Source: Endomicrobiales bacterium
Lineage (GTDB): Bacteria > Elusimicrobiota > Endomicrobiia > Endomicrobiales > JALOBY01
Assembly: GCA_963796955.1 (NCBI GenBank)
Contig: CAWCNJ010000009.1
Location: 1 to 64,000, forward strand
DNA: 64,000 bases
Reading direction: 5' to 3'
In this document: positions 7,798 through 14,493 of the stretch, one piece after another
Layout: each line of letters begins with the position of its first letter
Numbering within the stretch: position 1 is the first letter of the stretch
Position numbers and translations under genes: made by a program
The notes under the pieces: generated by a model
Told to the model about the DNA's origin: nothing
Database searches by the model: none
What the model saw: only the letters and a program-made list of their open reading frames with translations

Positions 7798-8295
7798 ATG
7801 GATAAAGCATGGTCAGCCCGGCTTATAGTCACCCAGCTCGCTTCTATTCTGGACTATTTAGACCGTATTATTGACGGCTCCTTCCGCGAAGAACATGTGG
7901 AACGCCTGCAGGCCGCCAATATCGTCCTTAGAGACAGCATCCTGCTGCAAAAAAGCATAACATTAGAATCCCTTAAACCCGAGATCATGGGCAGGGTCAA
8001 TGAATTGGCCTCGGATTCAGACTGTATGAAGCTAAGCCTCGCGATAGAAAATATAAAACCCGCCTTAAAGATAGAGCCTTCCAGGATCGCCCGCATAACC
8101 GGCCCGCTTTTACCAGGCAATAAACTTGACCCGGTAACTATTAAAGACAACGTTAAAACGCTTTTTGAAGCGCTTCACTCCCGTTACGATTCCACCGTCG
8201 ATCCTCAGAAAATAGAATCCCTGCAAGAATCCTCTCTGTATACCCTTGAAGCCGTTTATGAAGTGATCCGCGTACTGGTCATCCAAAACTCTTAA
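7798..8295 (+). CDS. hypothetical helical protein
   Basis: 165-aa ORF, no recognised motif. Confidence 0.6.
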   Translation: MDKAWSARLIVTQLASILDYLDRIIDGSFREEHVERLQAANIVLRDSILLQKSITLESLKPEIMGRVNELASDSDCMKLSLAIENIKPALKIEPSRIARITGPLLPGNKLDPVTIKDNVKTLFEALHSRYDSTVDPQKIESLQESSLYTLEAVYEVIRVLVIQNS

Positions 8296-8420
8296 CCTTG
8301 AAATGAAAACAAAAAACCATTGACAAGAATTAGGGTCTCTGCTATTCCGTATAGTGAAGCGGAACAAAATGTTGAACTGTAAAAGGAAGGGGACAGGCAG
8401 TATCCACATTTTCACGCCTC

Positions 8421-8456
8421 AAACAAGAAAAACCCGAAACGGGTTTTTCTTGTTTT
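8421..8456 (+). terminator. intrinsic terminator
   Basis: AAACAAGAAAAACCCG-AAA-CGGGTTTTTCTTGTTT perfect stem. Confidence 0.75.
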
Positions 8457-8601
8457 AAGGCCTGTTTTTTTGTGAACTATCTTTTAGTGATATGTTCATT
8501 GACAGAAGATAGGGGATTTTGTAAAAACAGCGAAGGGGGAATAGGGAAGTTCTAACATTGCACGGAAACTCCCGTGTGATTTTTTTATTTAAGGGGGAAT
8601 T

Positions 8602-8994
8602 ATGACTAAAGGATCAAATCAGGCATTTTGGATTTTGCGTGTTCTGTTTACAATAGTACCGATAGTAGCGGGTCTGGACAAGTACGCGAGAGTGCTTACA
8701 CAGTGGGATAAGTACGTATCTCCGGCAATGACGCATATAACAAGAATGCAGGCACGCTCATTCATGTCTTTAGTAGGGGTTATTGAGATTGTGGCCGGGA
8801 TACTTGTAGCGGTCAAACCTGCGATAGGCGCGTATGTAGTGTTCGCCTGGCTTGTAGGGATAGCATTGAACCTATTATTGCTTGGCGGTGTGGCAGACAT
8901 AGCCGTTAGAGACCTTGGGCTTGCTGTGAGCGCGCTTGCATTGGCGTTTTTAAGTAATGATGCCGCCCAAACTCAACAAAAACCTGCCATGTAG
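8602..8994 (+). CDS. DoxX-like membrane protein
   Basis: VPIVAGLDK..W.KY and DIAVRDLGL motifs; several TM segments; GGGGG SD. Confidence 0.75.
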   Translation: MTKGSNQAFWILRVLFTIVPIVAGLDKYARVLTQWDKYVSPAMTHITRMQARSFMSLVGVIEIVAGILVAVKPAIGAYVVFAWLVGIALNLLLLGGVADIAVRDLGLAVSALALAFLSNDAAQTQQKPAM

Positions 8995-9062: not shown

Positions 9063-9091
9063 TTGACTATATGTGGTCACTTTGTTATAAT
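9063..9091 (+). promoter_or_regulatory. sigma70 promoter of the tRNA-Arg/tRNA-His unit
   Basis: TTGACT, 17 bp spacer, TATAAT. Confidence 0.75.
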
Positions 9092-9150
9092 GAACAACCT
9101 CACATCCATATTGTTGCCCTCATAGCTCAATTGGATAGAGCAACTGCCTT

Positions 9151-9815
9151 CAGGCAAGGAGCCTTTGCAGGGAAAATAACCTGCTAAAGTGAATGTGGCT
9201 ATATGCAAGGATCTCCCTGACGATGGGGACAATTTGCAGGCAACCGTTGCTCATGAGGTAATCGGCATAGCGAAAGCTATGATTCGGTGTTTGGAGGTGG
9301 AGTACTGCATCATACTAAGGACAAGGCTGACTTGGGTGTAGCAAAGGTCATCGCCGATTTGGCAAGTAAAGGTTTCGTGCCATGTGTTCCGTTGTCTGAA
9401 CATCAGCCGTATGATTTAGTGGCTATTTCAAACAACGGGAAAGCGATTAAGCTGCAAGTGAAATTTGCTACCCTCAAGCGTAATGGCACCGTCGCTGTCG
9501 GTTTTAGAACGAGTTGGGCCGATAAAAACGGTACGCACATTAAGCGGCATAGTTCTCAACAATTTGATTACTATGCGCTTTATTGTCCCGATAAAGATGT
9601 GGTTCTCTTCATACCAAACTCGGCGGATTGTCCAAAATCGATCCGTTTTGAAAAACCGAAGAACAACCAGGGCAAATTAGTGCGCTGGTCTAACGATTAC
9701 CTTATGTTGTAGCGAGAGTCCTCAGAGACTATACGCCACACACCTGAAATGGTGAAGACATAGTCCAGACTACAATTCCGTTTGTAAGGGAGCTGGAGTA
9801 ATCCAGAGTAGTAAG
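9151..9815 (+). mobile_element. group I self-splicing intron with homing endonuclease ORF
   Basis: Exon ends in U and intron ends in G; R element TCAGAGACTA (9722-9731); S element AAGACATAGTCC (9755-9766); P7 GACTA/TAGTC; P3 TGTGGC/GCCACA; P8 CACC/GGTG. Confidence 0.92.
9287..9712 (+). CDS. group I intron-associated PD-(D/E)XK endonuclease (I-Ssp6803I-like)
   Basis: TKDKADLG...PYDLV...KLQVK...FDYYALYCP motif pattern; located inside the intron. Confidence 0.88.
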   Translation: MFGGGVLHHTKDKADLGVAKVIADLASKGFVPCVPLSEHQPYDLVAISNNGKAIKLQVKFATLKRNGTVAVGFRTSWADKNGTHIKRHSSQQFDYYALYCPDKDVVLFIPNSADCPKSIRFEKPKNNQGKLVRWSNDYLML

Positions 9816-9930
9816 CTAAGCAGTAGGTTACAGGTTCGATCCCTGTTGAGGGCGCTAGTTTTAGAATGTTTAAAATGGGTTGGTATTTCCACAGCAGAAA
9901 TGCGTACCGACCTACATGAAATGTCGTAAT

Positions 9931-10003
9931 GGTGGTTATAGTGTAATGGTTAGCACGAGGGATTGTGGATCCCTTAGTACGGGTTCAAATCCCGTTAGCC
10001 ACC
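9931..10003 (+). tRNA. tRNA-His(GTG)
   Basis: G-1 and C73; anticodon arm AGGGA-TT-GTG-GA-TCCCT; T arm ACGGG-TTCAAAT-CCCGT. Confidence 0.95.
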
Positions 10004-10094
10004 CTTCAAATGTTAAATGTGTTGAAAAATCAGTGTGAAGTGGAGTTTGTCGTCGGTATACCCCTAAGGGGACATAAATAGTGTTTTAAGACGG

Positions 10095-10124
10095 AAGCAA
10101 CAGGTTCGAGCCTGTTGCTTTTTT
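10095..10124 (+). terminator. intrinsic terminator after the tRNA unit
   Basis: AAGCAACAGG-TTCGAG-CCTGTTGCTT followed by a T run. Confidence 0.7.
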
Positions 10125-10267: not shown

Positions 10268-11791
10268 ATGGCATTACCGATAAGTATCGATGAGTTAATT
10301 AACGGGCAGGCGGTGGAGTCCGAAAGAATAGAATTCAAGGAAGGCTGGAATCCTGAAGAAATTCTTCATTCACTCTGCGCTTTTGCCAATGACATTAATA
10401 ACTGGGGCGGCGGATACATAATTATCGGCATTAAATCTGATAAAGGCAAGCCTATTTTGCCGCCTAAAGGATTAAGCTCCGAACAAGTTGATTCCTGTCA
10501 GAGGAAACTTCTTGAACTGTGCCACAAAATTACTCCGAATTATTTTCCTGTATCGTCGGTCGAAAAATATGAAGGTAAGCTCATTCTTGTTTTATGGGCT
10601 TTTGGTGGAGAAACAAGGCCATATAAAGCTCCAAAGACGCTCGGCAAGAAACCGGAGCAAATATATTATGTGCGCAGATTCTCATCAACAATAAAAGCAA
10701 ATCATTCCGAACAGAACCATCTCTACGCGCTGGCAGCAAAAGTGCCTTTTGACGACAGAATTAATCATAATGCTTCCATTGAAGAGTTCAACCCACACCT
10801 TATTAAAGCCTTCCTTAAGGAAGCCGGCAGCGATCTTCATTCAATAATGGATTCTATGCAGTTGAAAGAGTTGTGCACGCAGATGCAGATCGCACGCGGC
10901 TCAAATGAATTCTTCAGGCCTGTAAACGCTGGATTGTTGCTTTTTACTAATAACCCGGAAAAATATTTTAGAGATACCAGGATAGAGGTCGTTGAGTACC
11001 ATGATGAAATCGGCGACAAGTTTACCGAAAAGATATTCACTGGCCCTATTCATATGCAGCTTAGAGAAGCGCTCCGGTACATCAAAAATATGTTTATTAT
11101 TGAACAGGTAATAAAAATTCCAGACCAGGCTGAAGCAATGAGGTTCTTTAATTACCCTTACACGGCTATAGAGGAATCTCTCGCCAATGCCGTTTATCAC
11201 AAAAGTTATGAGGAGAGAAATCCCATTGAGGTTAATATCCGTCATGATAAAATAGAAATACTTTCTATCCCGGGCCCTGTTTTGCCAATTGACAACAAAA
11301 TGCTTAAACAGAGAGTAGTTGTTGCCCGCACATATCGAAACAGGCGCATAGGGGATTTTCTTAAAGAGATAGATTTAACAGAAGGCAGGAGCACCGGCTT
11401 TCCGAAAATTCGCCGAGCAATGAAGTTTAACGGCTCGCCACAACCGACTTTTGAAACGAATAAAACCCGGGACTATTTTTTAACGATACTGAAAATTCAT
11501 CCAAAGTTTAAACAAAAGGCCCACGCTGAGGCCCAAGTCAGGCACCAAGTCGGCACTAAGTCGGCACTAAGTGAGCAGCAAACAAATATACTGCGTAAAT
11601 GTATAGTTGAATCGACGATATTGGAATTGATGTCCATTGTTAAAAGATCCGACCGCACCAAATTTAGGAACCAAGTGTTGAATCCTCTAATTGAAGAAGG
11701 TTACATTGAAATGACTATTGCCGATAAGCCTCAAAGCAGTAAACAAAAATATAAAACTACGGAAAAAGGTTTAGGGTATATTAGGCAGTAA
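10268..11791 (+). CDS. Schlafen/AlbA_2 domain + HATPase-like (RecG C-terminal) domain + C-terminal HTH protein
   Basis: ESERIEFKEGW..CAFAND..GGYIIIG; EESLANAVYHKSY; YRNRRIG..EGRSTG; PQSSKQKY. Confidence 0.85.
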   Translation: MALPISIDELINGQAVESERIEFKEGWNPEEILHSLCAFANDINNWGGGYIIIGIKSDKGKPILPPKGLSSEQVDSCQRKLLELCHKITPNYFPVSSVEKYEGKLILVLWAFGGETRPYKAPKTLGKKPEQIYYVRRFSSTIKANHSEQNHLYALAAKVPFDDRINHNASIEEFNPHLIKAFLKEAGSDLHSIMDSMQLKELCTQMQIARGSNEFFRPVNAGLLLFTNNPEKYFRDTRIEVVEYHDEIGDKFTEKIFTGPIHMQLREALRYIKNMFIIEQVIKIPDQAEAMRFFNYPYTAIEESLANAVYHKSYEERNPIEVNIRHDKIEILSIPGPVLPIDNKMLKQRVVVARTYRNRRIGDFLKEIDLTEGRSTGFPKIRRAMKFNGSPQPTFETNKTRDYFLTILKIHPKFKQKAHAEAQVRHQVGTKSALSEQQTNILRKCIVESTILELMSIVKRSDRTKFRNQVLNPLIEEGYIEMTIADKPQSSKQKYKTTEKGLGYIRQ

Positions 11792-11857
11792 ATCGTATGA
11801 ATTGTTGAATTTTTAAATCCCATTCATAAATCATACAGAATGTGTTAAAGAGTAGCC

Positions 11858-11935
11858 GCAAAACAGGTTCGAACATCGTTCCATTGGGGACCCCAATAAA
11901 ATGATGTTCGAACCTATAGGTTTGGACGTCATTTT
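11858..11935. repeat. intergenic palindromic element, copy 1
   Basis: 11858-11915 is identical to 13200-13257; contains a long inverted repeat. Confidence 0.9.
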
Positions 11936-12025
11936 TTTACTGGTGAGCCGCAAATGTTTGTTGTTCTTGAGGTGTCATGACTCCCAGTAATTGACATAAT
12001 TGAGGGAATGTTATATACTTGGCTT

Positions 12026-13153
12026 ATGAAAATACCCAGGATCTATCAAGATTTAAAAGGCTTGCTTGTTCCAAATAAGGCGCTTATTATTTACGGCCCC
12101 CGGCAGGTCGGGAAGACGACGTTGCTAAAAGATTTTCTTTCAAAAACAAAATTGAAATGGAAACTTGATTCCGGAGATAATATTAAAACGCAGCATGTTT
12201 TTGGTTCACAGGACTTTTCTGTGCTGAAGGACTATGTCGAAGGTTATGATCTTATAGCTATTGACGAGGCTCAGAAAATTAAGGGTATTGGGCAGGGCTT
12301 AAAGATACTAGTAGATCAGGTGCCGGGTCTCAGGATTATCGCCACCGGTTCTTCGTCGTTTGAATTGGCCGGGCAGGTGGGCGAGCCATTGACGGGAAGA
12401 AAGCATACCCTGACATTATACCCTATTGCGCAGATGGAACTTGCCATGCTTCATAATGCCCATGAACTGAAAGAAAGCTTAACGGAAAACCTGATTTATG
12501 GAAGCTATCCTGAGGTGATAACTACAAAAAACAAACATGAGAAAGTGAGGCTTCTTGAAGATATGGTCCATTCCTATTTGTTAAAAGATATTCTTGAACT
12601 TGAGAAAGTGAAGAGTTCAAAGGTATTGCTTGATATCCTTCGGCTTCTGGCATTTCAGATGGGTTGTGAAGTTTCGCTTACGGAGATAGGCACGCAGGTT
12701 GGTGTTGACCATAAAACGGTCGCTCGGTATATTGATTTATTTGAAAAATCTTTCATTCTGTTCAACTTGCGAGGGTTTAATAAGAATTTGCGTAAGGAAG
12801 TGACAAAGAAAAGCAAATACTTTTTTTATGACAATGGCATACGTAACGCGATAGTTTCAAATTTCAATGCGCTTGAACTTCGTAACGATATTGGGCAGCT
12901 TTGGGAAAATTTTGTCTTTATTGAGCGTCTTAAGAAAAGGTCATATAAAGACGTTTTCGCGAACTGTTACTTCTGGCGTACCTGGGATCAAAAAGAGATC
13001 GATCTTGTTGAAGAAAGGGATGGAAATCTTTTTGGTTATGAAATGAAGTGGTCTAAAACCCACACAAAGCCACCTGCCGATTGGGTCGCTGCATACAAGA
13101 ATGCCAGTTACGAAGTTATCACCAAAGAGAACTATCTAAGCTTCGTTGCATAA
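12026..13153 (+). CDS. AAA family ATPase with DUF4143 and C-terminal nuclease-like domain
   Basis: GPRQVGKT Walker A; IDEAQ; ATGSSS; LWENF; EIDLV..YEMKW. Confidence 0.9.
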   Translation: MKIPRIYQDLKGLLVPNKALIIYGPRQVGKTTLLKDFLSKTKLKWKLDSGDNIKTQHVFGSQDFSVLKDYVEGYDLIAIDEAQKIKGIGQGLKILVDQVPGLRIIATGSSSFELAGQVGEPLTGRKHTLTLYPIAQMELAMLHNAHELKESLTENLIYGSYPEVITTKNKHEKVRLLEDMVHSYLLKDILELEKVKSSKVLLDILRLLAFQMGCEVSLTEIGTQVGVDHKTVARYIDLFEKSFILFNLRGFNKNLRKEVTKKSKYFFYDNGIRNAIVSNFNALELRNDIGQLWENFVFIERLKKRSYKDVFANCYFWRTWDQKEIDLVEERDGNLFGYEMKWSKTHTKPPADWVAAYKNASYEVITKENYLSFVA

Positions 13154-13199
13154 GTTGAAAGTATTAATAAAATCAAGCAGAATCAGCTAATTAGCAGCA

Positions 13200-13278
13200 G
13201 CAAAACAGGTTCGAACATCGTTCCATTGGGGACCCCAATAAAATGATGTTCGAACCTCAAAGGTTTGGACATCATTTT
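13200..13278. repeat. intergenic palindromic element, copy 2
   Basis: Near-identical to 11858-11935. Confidence 0.9.
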
Positions 13279-13356
13279 ATAATTTTGCAGAAATCGGCTG
13301 GGGATATTGATGTAACCACACTTTACATTTGGTTAAGTTTATTGTAAAATGGTGTT

Positions 13357-14493
13357 ATGATAACAAGAACCCTTTGGCTGAACAAGATCAAAGATTGTTG
13401 GAAGAAGCGCTCTCTCGTTTGGCTGAGTGGTGTTCGTCGTGTTGGTAAAACGACTCTCGCGAAAGAGTTTAAAGATGCCTTATACCTAAACTGCGACCTC
13501 CCCAGTGTCAGAGAAATGCTGCAAGACCCCGAATTTTTCTACAAGAATTGCTCCCATCCTATCATTATCTTTGATGAGATACACCAGCTTGAAGATCCCA
13601 GCCAGATTTTGAAAATTGGCGCGGATGAGTTTAGCCGTATTAAGATCCTTGCAACGGGATCTTCAACTCTTGCTGCTACAAGAAAATTCAAGGATTCACT
13701 GGCCGGCCGAAAATTTAATGTATCAATGCTACCGGTTCTCGTTACTGAGTGTCACGATTTTGGTGTGACTGATATACGCAAACGCCTGTTATACGGCGGT
13801 TTACCCAATGCGTTGTTATCCGCGCAGAAAGATCCTGCACTCTACTCAGAGTGGCTAGATTCATTTTACGCCCGGGATGTACATGAGCTATTCAGAGTTG
13901 ATAAACGTCACGGGTTCCTTCAGTTGTGTGAGTTGCTTCTCAGGCAAAGCGGGGCATTGCTTGAGGTAACCAGCCTGGCTAAACATGCAGGCCTTAGTAG
14001 GCCAACGGTAATGAATTATCTGGAAATCCTTCAGGCAACACTTGTGTTGCGTTTAGTTCGGCCCTTCCACGGTGGCGGACGCCAGGAGATTATCAGCCAA
14101 CCCAAAGCATACGGATTTGATACGGGATTTATTTCCTATTATAAAGGTTTCACCGAACTTCGTGAAGATGATTGCGGCATTCTGTGGGAGCATTTGGTTT
14201 TGGATTATTTAATAAGCACATGTCAGCCGGACAAGTTATATTATTGGCGGGATAAGCAGAAGCGGGAAATAGATTTCATATATGCGGCAGATTCAAAGAA
14301 TGTTCATGCGATCGAGTGCAAGTGGAACCCCGCTGCTTTCGATGTTAAGGCGATCAAGGCTTTTCGCGAGATATATCCCGGCGGAAAAAATGTTGTAGTC
14401 AGTCCGAAAGTAATGACCCCATACAAAAAGAAGATTGGTGAAATTGAAGTTATATTTACAGGTATTACGGCCGAGTCAACTAATATTTTTTAA
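13357..14493 (+). CDS. AAA family ATPase with DUF4143 and C-terminal nuclease-like domain
   Basis: GVRRVGKT; FDEIH; ATGSS; LWEH; EIDF..IECKW. Confidence 0.9.
   Translation: MITRTLWLNKIKDCWKKRSLVWLSGVRRVGKTTLAKEFKDALYLNCDLPSVREMLQDPEFFYKNCSHPIIIFDEIHQLEDPSQILKIGADEFSRIKILATGSSTLAATRKFKDSLAGRKFNVSMLPVLVTECHDFGVTDIRKRLLYGGLPNALLSAQKDPALYSEWLDSFYARDVHELFRVDKRHGFLQLCELLLRQSGALLEVTSLAKHAGLSRPTVMNYLEILQATLVLRLVRPFHGGGRQEIISQPKAYGFDTGFISYYKGFTELREDDCGILWEHLVLDYLISTCQPDKLYYWRDKQKREIDFIYAADSKNVHAIECKWNPAAFDVKAIKAFREIYPGGKNVVVSPKVMTPYKKKIGEIEVIFTGITAESTNIF

Follow-up and report, generated by a model that had tools for sequence, protein, structure and literature searches.

A group I-type intron with an endonuclease-family gene in the anticodon of a tRNA-Arg(UCU) gene from an Endomicrobiales bacterium

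The catalogue of Williams (2020; bioRxiv 10.1101/2020.01.27.920355) raised the number of known settings of bacterial tRNA group I introns from four to 21, 17 of them new; the Leu, fMet, CAU and Arg(CCU) introns were reported there as IC3, and introns longer than approximately 400 bp were said to hold genes. A tRNA-Arg-TCT gene split by a putative group I intron has been described in Ca. Thiomargarita nelsonii and Ca. Maribeggiatoa, in a passage that cites MacGregor et al. (2013) (Flood et al., 2016; PMC4853749). The available passages of PMC3984707, PMC11915505, PMC8450103 and PMC11835236 hold no Arg(UCU) entry. Among homing endonucleases, the closest described system is I-Ssp6803I (PDB 2OST; PF11645), which is encoded in the tRNA-fMet intron of Synechocystis and shares its family and predicted fold with the intron ORF described below. 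In a literature search covering few subscription journals, we found no paper on an endonuclease in an Arg(UCU) intron or on the absence of the residue corresponding to E11 of I-Ssp6803I.

The window analyzed here is a stretch of 64,000 nucleotides (contig CAWCNJ010000009.1 of assembly GCA_963796955.1, positions 1 to 64,000). Our analysis confirmed that it holds an arginine tRNA gene split in the anticodon by a group I-type intron with an endonuclease-family gene. The gene consists of the following parts:

9116..9150, + strand: 5' exon of tRNA-Arg(UCU), with U34 as its last base and A20 in the D-loop (Aragorn and the excision test)
9151..9815, + strand: group I intron of 665 nt with omega-G 9815 at its end (excision, covariation and the homolog profile)
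9816..9854, + strand: 3' exon of tRNA-Arg(UCU), from C35 to the discriminator G73; CCA is not encoded

Excision of 9151-9815 yields tRNA-Arg(UCU), exactly at the coordinates of the preliminary description, and Aragorn, run with its intron option, placed a tRNA-Arg(tct) gene at 9116-9855 and gave its intron a length of 665 nt. We tried 33 excision registers, of which three have a U before the intron and a G at its end; only 9151-9815 produces a loop of 7 bases and is called as a tRNA, Arg(tct). Both the perfect tRNA-Arg(TCT) and the use of the U/G boundary rule in the preliminary description were thus borne out, since only this register obeys the rule and yields a normal tRNA, with the exon junction CTT|CTAA between anticodon positions 34 and 35. 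A20 is an identity element of arginine tRNAs. The spliced cloverleaf with its UCU anticodon agrees with the single syntenic gene of the relatives, both exons are intact, and omega-G (G9815) is invariant in the intron alignment. Default Aragorn, and Rfam at the gathering score, missed the split gene and reported only tRNA-Pro and tRNA-His in the window, as had been anticipated for standard callers; under default annotation, carriers of the intron would appear to lack an AGA-reading tRNA.

No second Arg(UCU) gene was found in the host assembly (2.1 Mb, 81% complete), either among 35 default tRNA calls or by BLAST with the exons, the closest match being Arg(cct) at 75%. In 940 stop-free frames of at least 300 codons, which are not curated genes, AGA accounts for 3220 of 533,823 codons and occurs in 843 frames. 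Since the only Arg(UCU) gene in the assembly is split, AGA decoding should require splicing of the intron, and the earlier suggestion of a sole, splicing-dependent gene holds within the 81%-complete assembly; if the window copy is the only one, approximately 6 codons per 1000 would depend on splicing. Default Aragorn calls for the assembly also lacked Asn(GUU), Arg(ACG), Gln(UUG), Thr(UGU), Leu(CAA), Leu(CAG) and Ser(GGA). A search of the genome for group I cores revealed none besides that of the window, and these absences are likely to be assembly gaps or caller misses because no second group I core accounts for them. A lowered-threshold Aragorn list (77 calls) was mostly noise. The Arg(ACG) "intron" proposed at this threshold on C3 was rejected; the region resembles RNase P RNA by eye.

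The intact core claimed in the preliminary description (GAG with exon CUU, P3, P4, P7 and P8) pairs in the window and in an alignment of 30 introns (the window, L006 and 28 of the 47 complete loci introduced below), with compensatory changes. Its elements are:

9158..9161, + strand: internal guide sequence; 9159-9161 pairs with exon 9148-9150 (U-1 with a G wobble), and 9158 can pair with 9151
9163..9189, + strand: P2 hairpin (local fold)
9194..9201, + strand: P3 5' strand, partner 9732-9740
9204..9240, + strand: P4 (9204-9209 with 9233-9238), short P5 and P6 5' strand (9239-9240) (local fold)
9720..9766, + strand: P6 3' strand, P7, P3 3' strand, P8 and J8/7 (Rfam consensus matches in the region)
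9769..9812, + strand: P9.0/P9 domain with a GUAA tetraloop hairpin at 9793-9806 (local fold)

P7 is formed by 9725-9731 with 9761-9766 and contains the G-binding pair 9727-9765, and P8 occupies 9741-9754. In the alignment, P1 is 98.9% paired with a U-G pair in 30/30 introns (here U9150 with G9159), P3 is 98.3% paired with two-sided changes in five of its eight pairs, and P4, P6, P7 and P8 are each 100% paired, so that the P3-P7 pseudoknot with its G-binding pair and bulged A, P4-P6 and P8 are present at 98–100% pairing with compensatory changes. The IGS GAG and P9.0 likewise pair in the window and in the homologs (P9.0 91%, the P9 hairpin 74%). In P2, which is 55% paired overall, the outer four pairs covary and the inner five do not hold up in the alignment, owing to a bulge register peculiar to the window copy. 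Over the 47 named pairs, 87.5% of the cells are paired and 26 pairs show two-sided changes, in sequences that are related and not independent; the changes in P4 mostly represent one split between two clades (17 vs. 13). Slid registers gave 34–46% pairing, and 0 of 500 shuffles scored as high. J4/5 of the window's clade differs from the A-rich form of the other clade, and the P10 duplex with the 3' exon is weak (-2.3 kcal/mol). In its compact layout the intron aligns with the Leu, fMet, CAU and Arg(CCU) introns and may be called IC3-like.

A search with group I models, proposed earlier as a check, gave a divided outcome. On the window, Rfam RF00028 scored 15.6 and 12.4 bits (E 0.27 and 2.5), below the cut-off of 50; a low score is expected because a 400-nt ORF interrupts the core, and the shortfall is a real gap in the evidence. 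ORF-less homologs fared better, 3 of 11 matching at 31–34 bits (E 2e-5 to 1e-4), also below the cut-off, and a profile built from 10 ORF-less homologs matched the window at 9707-9823 with E 6.5e-19 and at 9157-9204 with E 0.16, with no significant match elsewhere in the genome. Williams (2020; bioRxiv 10.1101/2020.01.27.920355) used 18–20 bits and noted that RF00028 is built without bacterial seeds.

The P6 extension holds the enzyme gene:

9293..9299, + strand: Shine-Dalgarno-like sequence; a similar purine-rich stretch precedes the start in close homologs
9305..9712, + strand: 135-aa PD-(D/E)XK homing-endonuclease-family ORF with a CTG start and a TAG stop, in the P6 extension loop

Translation likely begins at CTG 9305 and not at GTG 9287 of the mechanical ORF list, since the aligned codon after the Shine-Dalgarno-like stretch is of a start type in 50 of the 58 loci scored (ATG 31, TTG 10, CTG 5, GTG 4). 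Folding of 9239-9330 revealed no significant structure masking the start (z -0.68). The product matches PF11645 at 86.5 bits (cut-off 26.1; E 2.2e-24). A single-sequence search of the PDB with the ORF gave no significant match (E 0.23), and no NCBIfam model matches it; a 55-sequence profile matched 2OST only (E 4e-9), and Foldseek placed four 2OST chains at the top for the structure model (pLDDT 88.7; best E 7e-9, TM 0.73). The assignment of the looped-out gene to the PD-(D/E)XK enzymes of the I-Ssp6803I family was therefore upheld. Among 20 intact enzyme genes (190 pairs; L047, with an internal stop, left out), median pS is 0.74, median pN 0.21 and median pN/pS 0.28 with a maximum of 0.40, pN/pS being quoted because dS is saturated; such values indicate purifying selection on the gene. 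In many close-clade homologs (L037, L038, L039, L041, L042 and others) the ORF continues through P6, P7 and P8 to 152 aa and ends only in J8/7-P7; the stop of the window copy lies in P6a. Enzyme genes are also seen decaying inside intact introns: L047 has an internal stop, L088, L089, L091 and L092 are frameshifted, and L219 has an internal deletion.

Relatives of the enzyme are encoded at 59 genome loci, in Omnitrophota, Planctomycetota, Elusimicrobiota, Gammaproteobacteria and a few other groups. Forty-seven of these yield Arg(tct) when spliced in silico at this position, with introns of 629–932 nt and, in one case, A for U33. Of the remaining 12, six are truncated by a contig end, one contains an N-run, two share the junction but have a stem mismatch, one has damaged exons, and two are free-standing genes beside intron-free Arg(tct). 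Eleven ORF-less introns of 202–317 nt occupy the same site. An initial, loose collection pattern matched 120 loci and had an intron core in 17 of the 80 looked at; a strict 3'-junction pattern was found in at least 119 genome records, a T-arm-like motif following in all 119, and the matches listed include cultured Bacillaceae, Aeromonas and Vibrio. Eight viral contigs have an intron core and the same 3' junction. In view of these records and of the Arg-TCT introns described for Beggiatoaceae in the available part of PMC4853749, the Arg(UCU) 34/35 position is not the new host site that the preliminary description had suggested. Arg(UCU) is a common intron host (at least 119 records, and phage contigs as well) on which little has been published.

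Viral contigs L257 and L259 have 651-nt Arg(UCU) introns without a match to this enzyme family, which may carry a different insert, and viral contig L253 has an ORF-less 229-nt Arg(UCU) intron with an enzyme homolog elsewhere in the same 1.4-kb locus. The two free-standing homologs (L062:1486-2039 and L087:1369-1900) adjoin tRNA-Arg(UCU) genes that lack an intron and have anticodon stems unlike those of the intron-bearing genes; possibly, these represent homing without an intron, the enzyme's own allele being resistant. In addition, L248 (genome G479, from the order around a Sterolibacterium record) has a CAU tRNA split at 33/34 by a group I intron whose 3' end resembles those of Arg(UCU) introns.

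Among the relatives, a survey proposed in the preliminary description and carried out here, the intron is patchy: a pattern search found it in 2 of 104 genomes of the host's order, the enzyme gene was detected in 6 of the 401 genomes searched in the phylum, and 28 of 29 Arg loci fetched from relatives are intron-free. The ORF of G007 is identical to a protein named as Endomicrobiales, which suggests this order for the host. A quick enzyme tree does not place the enzymes of the window genome and G007 as sisters and intermixes the phyla, with 23 of its 47 inner branches open. The intron probably entered the host lineage horizontally, a suggestion based mainly on the patchy spread because support in the enzyme tree is low. 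Contigs assembled from peat runs include a relative approximately 92% identical over 9111-9866 and two relatives without just the ORF; none of the peat-run contigs with relatives shows splicing. None of the sequencing runs searched held half of the searched words, and no spliced junction in RNA contigs was attributable to this organism. A joint in RNA run X14 that skips exactly 9151-9815 was rejected as splicing; the contig has other letters in both exons, and we read it as what appears to be the intron-free tRNA of another organism.

We consider it highly probable that this is a group I intron at 34/35 of tRNA-Arg(UCU), with a gene of the I-Ssp6803I family, that splices and homes in the manner proposed here. 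With the anatomy described above, group I chemistry predicts that the guide GAG would pair with the exon end CUU after transcription, free guanosine bound in P7 would attack after U34, and the 5' exon would then attack after omega-G 9815, joining the exons into an AGA-reading tRNA. The P6 loop would supply, from a gene with a weak CTG start, an endonuclease. Judging from its family and modeled fold, the most likely target of this enzyme is the pseudo-palindromic DNA of the anticodon stem-loop in Arg(UCU) genes that lack the intron, and cutting of such an allele would spread the intron by homing. Homing is favored indirectly by the patchy spread, the purifying selection and the free-standing copies beside the target gene. 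The element is best explained as a copy of an Arg(UCU) intron lineage, old and widespread, which gains and loses its enzyme gene.

The active site bears on whether the product cuts. D9, D37, Q51 and K53 (helix-1 Asp, PD Asp and Q-x-K) are invariant in 55/55 proteins aligned to 2OST, and correspond to D8, D36, Q49 and K51 of I-Ssp6803I; H2, H3, H33 and H78 are invariant in the 55 as well. The column of I-Ssp6803I E11 contains V in 34 proteins, L in 19, G in one, A in one and E in none (V12 in the window protein), and E occupies this column in a cyanobacterial homolog located next to an fMet intron. A product that is not an active nuclease, and is instead a DNA/RNA-binding protein such as a splicing helper or a slowly decaying passenger in an intron that splices, would agree with this loss, since the E11Q change renders I-Ssp6803I catalytically inactive according to the accessible text of PMC2175346, and also with the broken copies (L047, L088, L089, L091, L092 and L219) and the weak CTG start. 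We nevertheless regard it as unlikely, as the other putative catalytic positions are invariant, the gene is under purifying selection, and ORF-less introns are common, so that no helper is needed. Moreover, in a wider survey of the best 150 cluster representatives (158 domain rows, 149 with letters in both columns), E32 occurs in 124 and H33 in 123 of the 139 rows without E at the E11 column, and H33 in 0 of the 10 rows with it. In EcoO109I, the glutamate is known to have migrated to a position directly ahead of the PD aspartate, according to the available part of PMC3424549.

The alignments thus define a large putative subfamily that lacks E11 and has a conserved Glu-His (E32/H33) ahead of the PD aspartate, and we read the ORF product as a putatively functional nuclease with a swapped active-site residue. 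Taken further, the ORF may represent an uncharacterized cross-phylum subfamily of I-Ssp6803I-type enzymes directed at the anticodon stem-loop of tRNA-Arg(UCU) and possessing a rebuilt active site, in which the essential helix-1 Glu is lost and its role is taken by the Glu-His before the PD Asp, perhaps with the invariant N-terminal His-His; for this complete proposal we see the chances as evenly balanced. If true, this would be a second tRNA-targeting PD-(D/E)XK homing enzyme, and one that drives the spread of Arg(UCU) introns in Elusimicrobiota, Omnitrophota, Planctomycetota, Gammaproteobacteria and phages; if the protein cuts, an active-site residue swap inside the I-Ssp6803I family would be added, together with a further tRNA-specific homing enzyme. 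A cultured carrier of the intron exists (L081, Lentisalinibacter salinarum X77, whose 643-nt intron contains the ORF), which makes the question of the enzyme directly testable. The unusual active site is the only candidate novelty that remains, the Arg(UCU) intron arrangement itself being known and common.

The preliminary description had also linked the intron to the Leu(UAA) lineage. That an intron of tRNA-Leu(UAA) moved to another tRNA isotype is suggested by the shared site 34/35 and CUU exon end and by the GAGCC after the P1 loop in 15 of the 17 cyanobacterial Leu(UAA) introns listed, but such an origin seems improbable to us. The shared GAG guide is demanded by pairing with the CUU exon end. 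In its core the window intron has 63% identity with other Arg(UCU) introns and 48% with cyanobacterial Leu(UAA) introns (n = 17), the latter a value within the 47–54% of the remaining classes and not above Arg(CCU) (54%, n = 1), CAU 36/37 (52%, n = 1), cyanobacterial fMet (50%, n = 2) or proteobacterial Leu(UAA) (50%, n = 4). In a core tree of 46 introns (204 columns; 10 loci without an automatic boundary call and two duplicate registers left out), the 20 Arg(UCU) introns are separated from the other 26 with a support of 99.9/100 and no sister group is resolved; the proposed link was not sustained, though an ancient move keeps some probability in view of the short alignment and the small samples of the other classes. 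A dead, non-splicing element that breaks the tRNA gene, with a second Arg(UCU) gene in the unassembled part, is very hard to credit. The 81% completeness of the assembly, its lack of default calls for, e.g., Asn(GUU) and Arg(ACG), and the departure of J4/5 from the A-rich form of the other clade would fit such an element; against it, the exons are intact and match the single syntenic gene of the relatives, all core helices pair, and dozens of genomes retain this element at the identical site.

The split gene lies between features that may delimit an Arg-His transcript:

9063..9091, + strand: sigma-70-type promoter-like site of the Arg-His tRNA transcript, 11/12 consensus matches with TG
9932..10004, + strand: tRNA-His(GUG) (Aragorn and Rfam), the usual downstream neighbor, also in relatives
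10093..10122, + strand: terminator-like hairpin (consensus match only)

The promoter scan gave 7 sites vs. 4.7 +/- 2.2 in shuffles, and the function of 9063..9091 is predicted from its sequence. Upstream, a 1.35-kb insert between tRNA-Pro and tRNA-Arg (window 7798-8994) contains two ORFs of 165 aa and 130 aa without a Pfam or NCBIfam match. Pro-Arg-His form a contiguous run in G001 (L008), a genome of the same family; the window's Arg-His pair has its own promoter-like site. Downstream of tRNA-His, 10268-14493 encodes two ATPases of the AAA_14-DUF4143 type together with an AlbA_2/HATPase_c_4/Fic-like C protein, and this region may be an island at the 3' end of the tRNA.

Compared with the known systems, the Beggiatoaceae introns agree in isoacceptor, in the putative group I assignment and in having been missed by standard annotation; the passage in PMC4853749 gives a 324-base span, with no room for an ORF, and no insertion position or structure. 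The catalogue of Williams (2020) contains the same kind of element mapped by the same rule; in its scheme the window site would be Arg.3Ug, a term absent from its running text (Table 1 and Fig. 3 are images). The Leu(UAA) introns share position 34/35, the CUU exon end and the GAG guide with the window intron, but form a separate sequence lineage with 48% core identity and differ in P3, P4 and the 3' end. I-Ssp6803I is likewise encoded in a tRNA intron, and the likely target of both enzymes is a pseudo-palindromic anticodon stem-loop, as predicted for the window ORF. The two differ, at approximately 20% identity, in the tRNA and in the site (34/35 vs. 33/34), and the subfamily of the window ORF has V/L in place of E11, a Glu-His ahead of the PD aspartate and an invariant His-His at the N-terminus.
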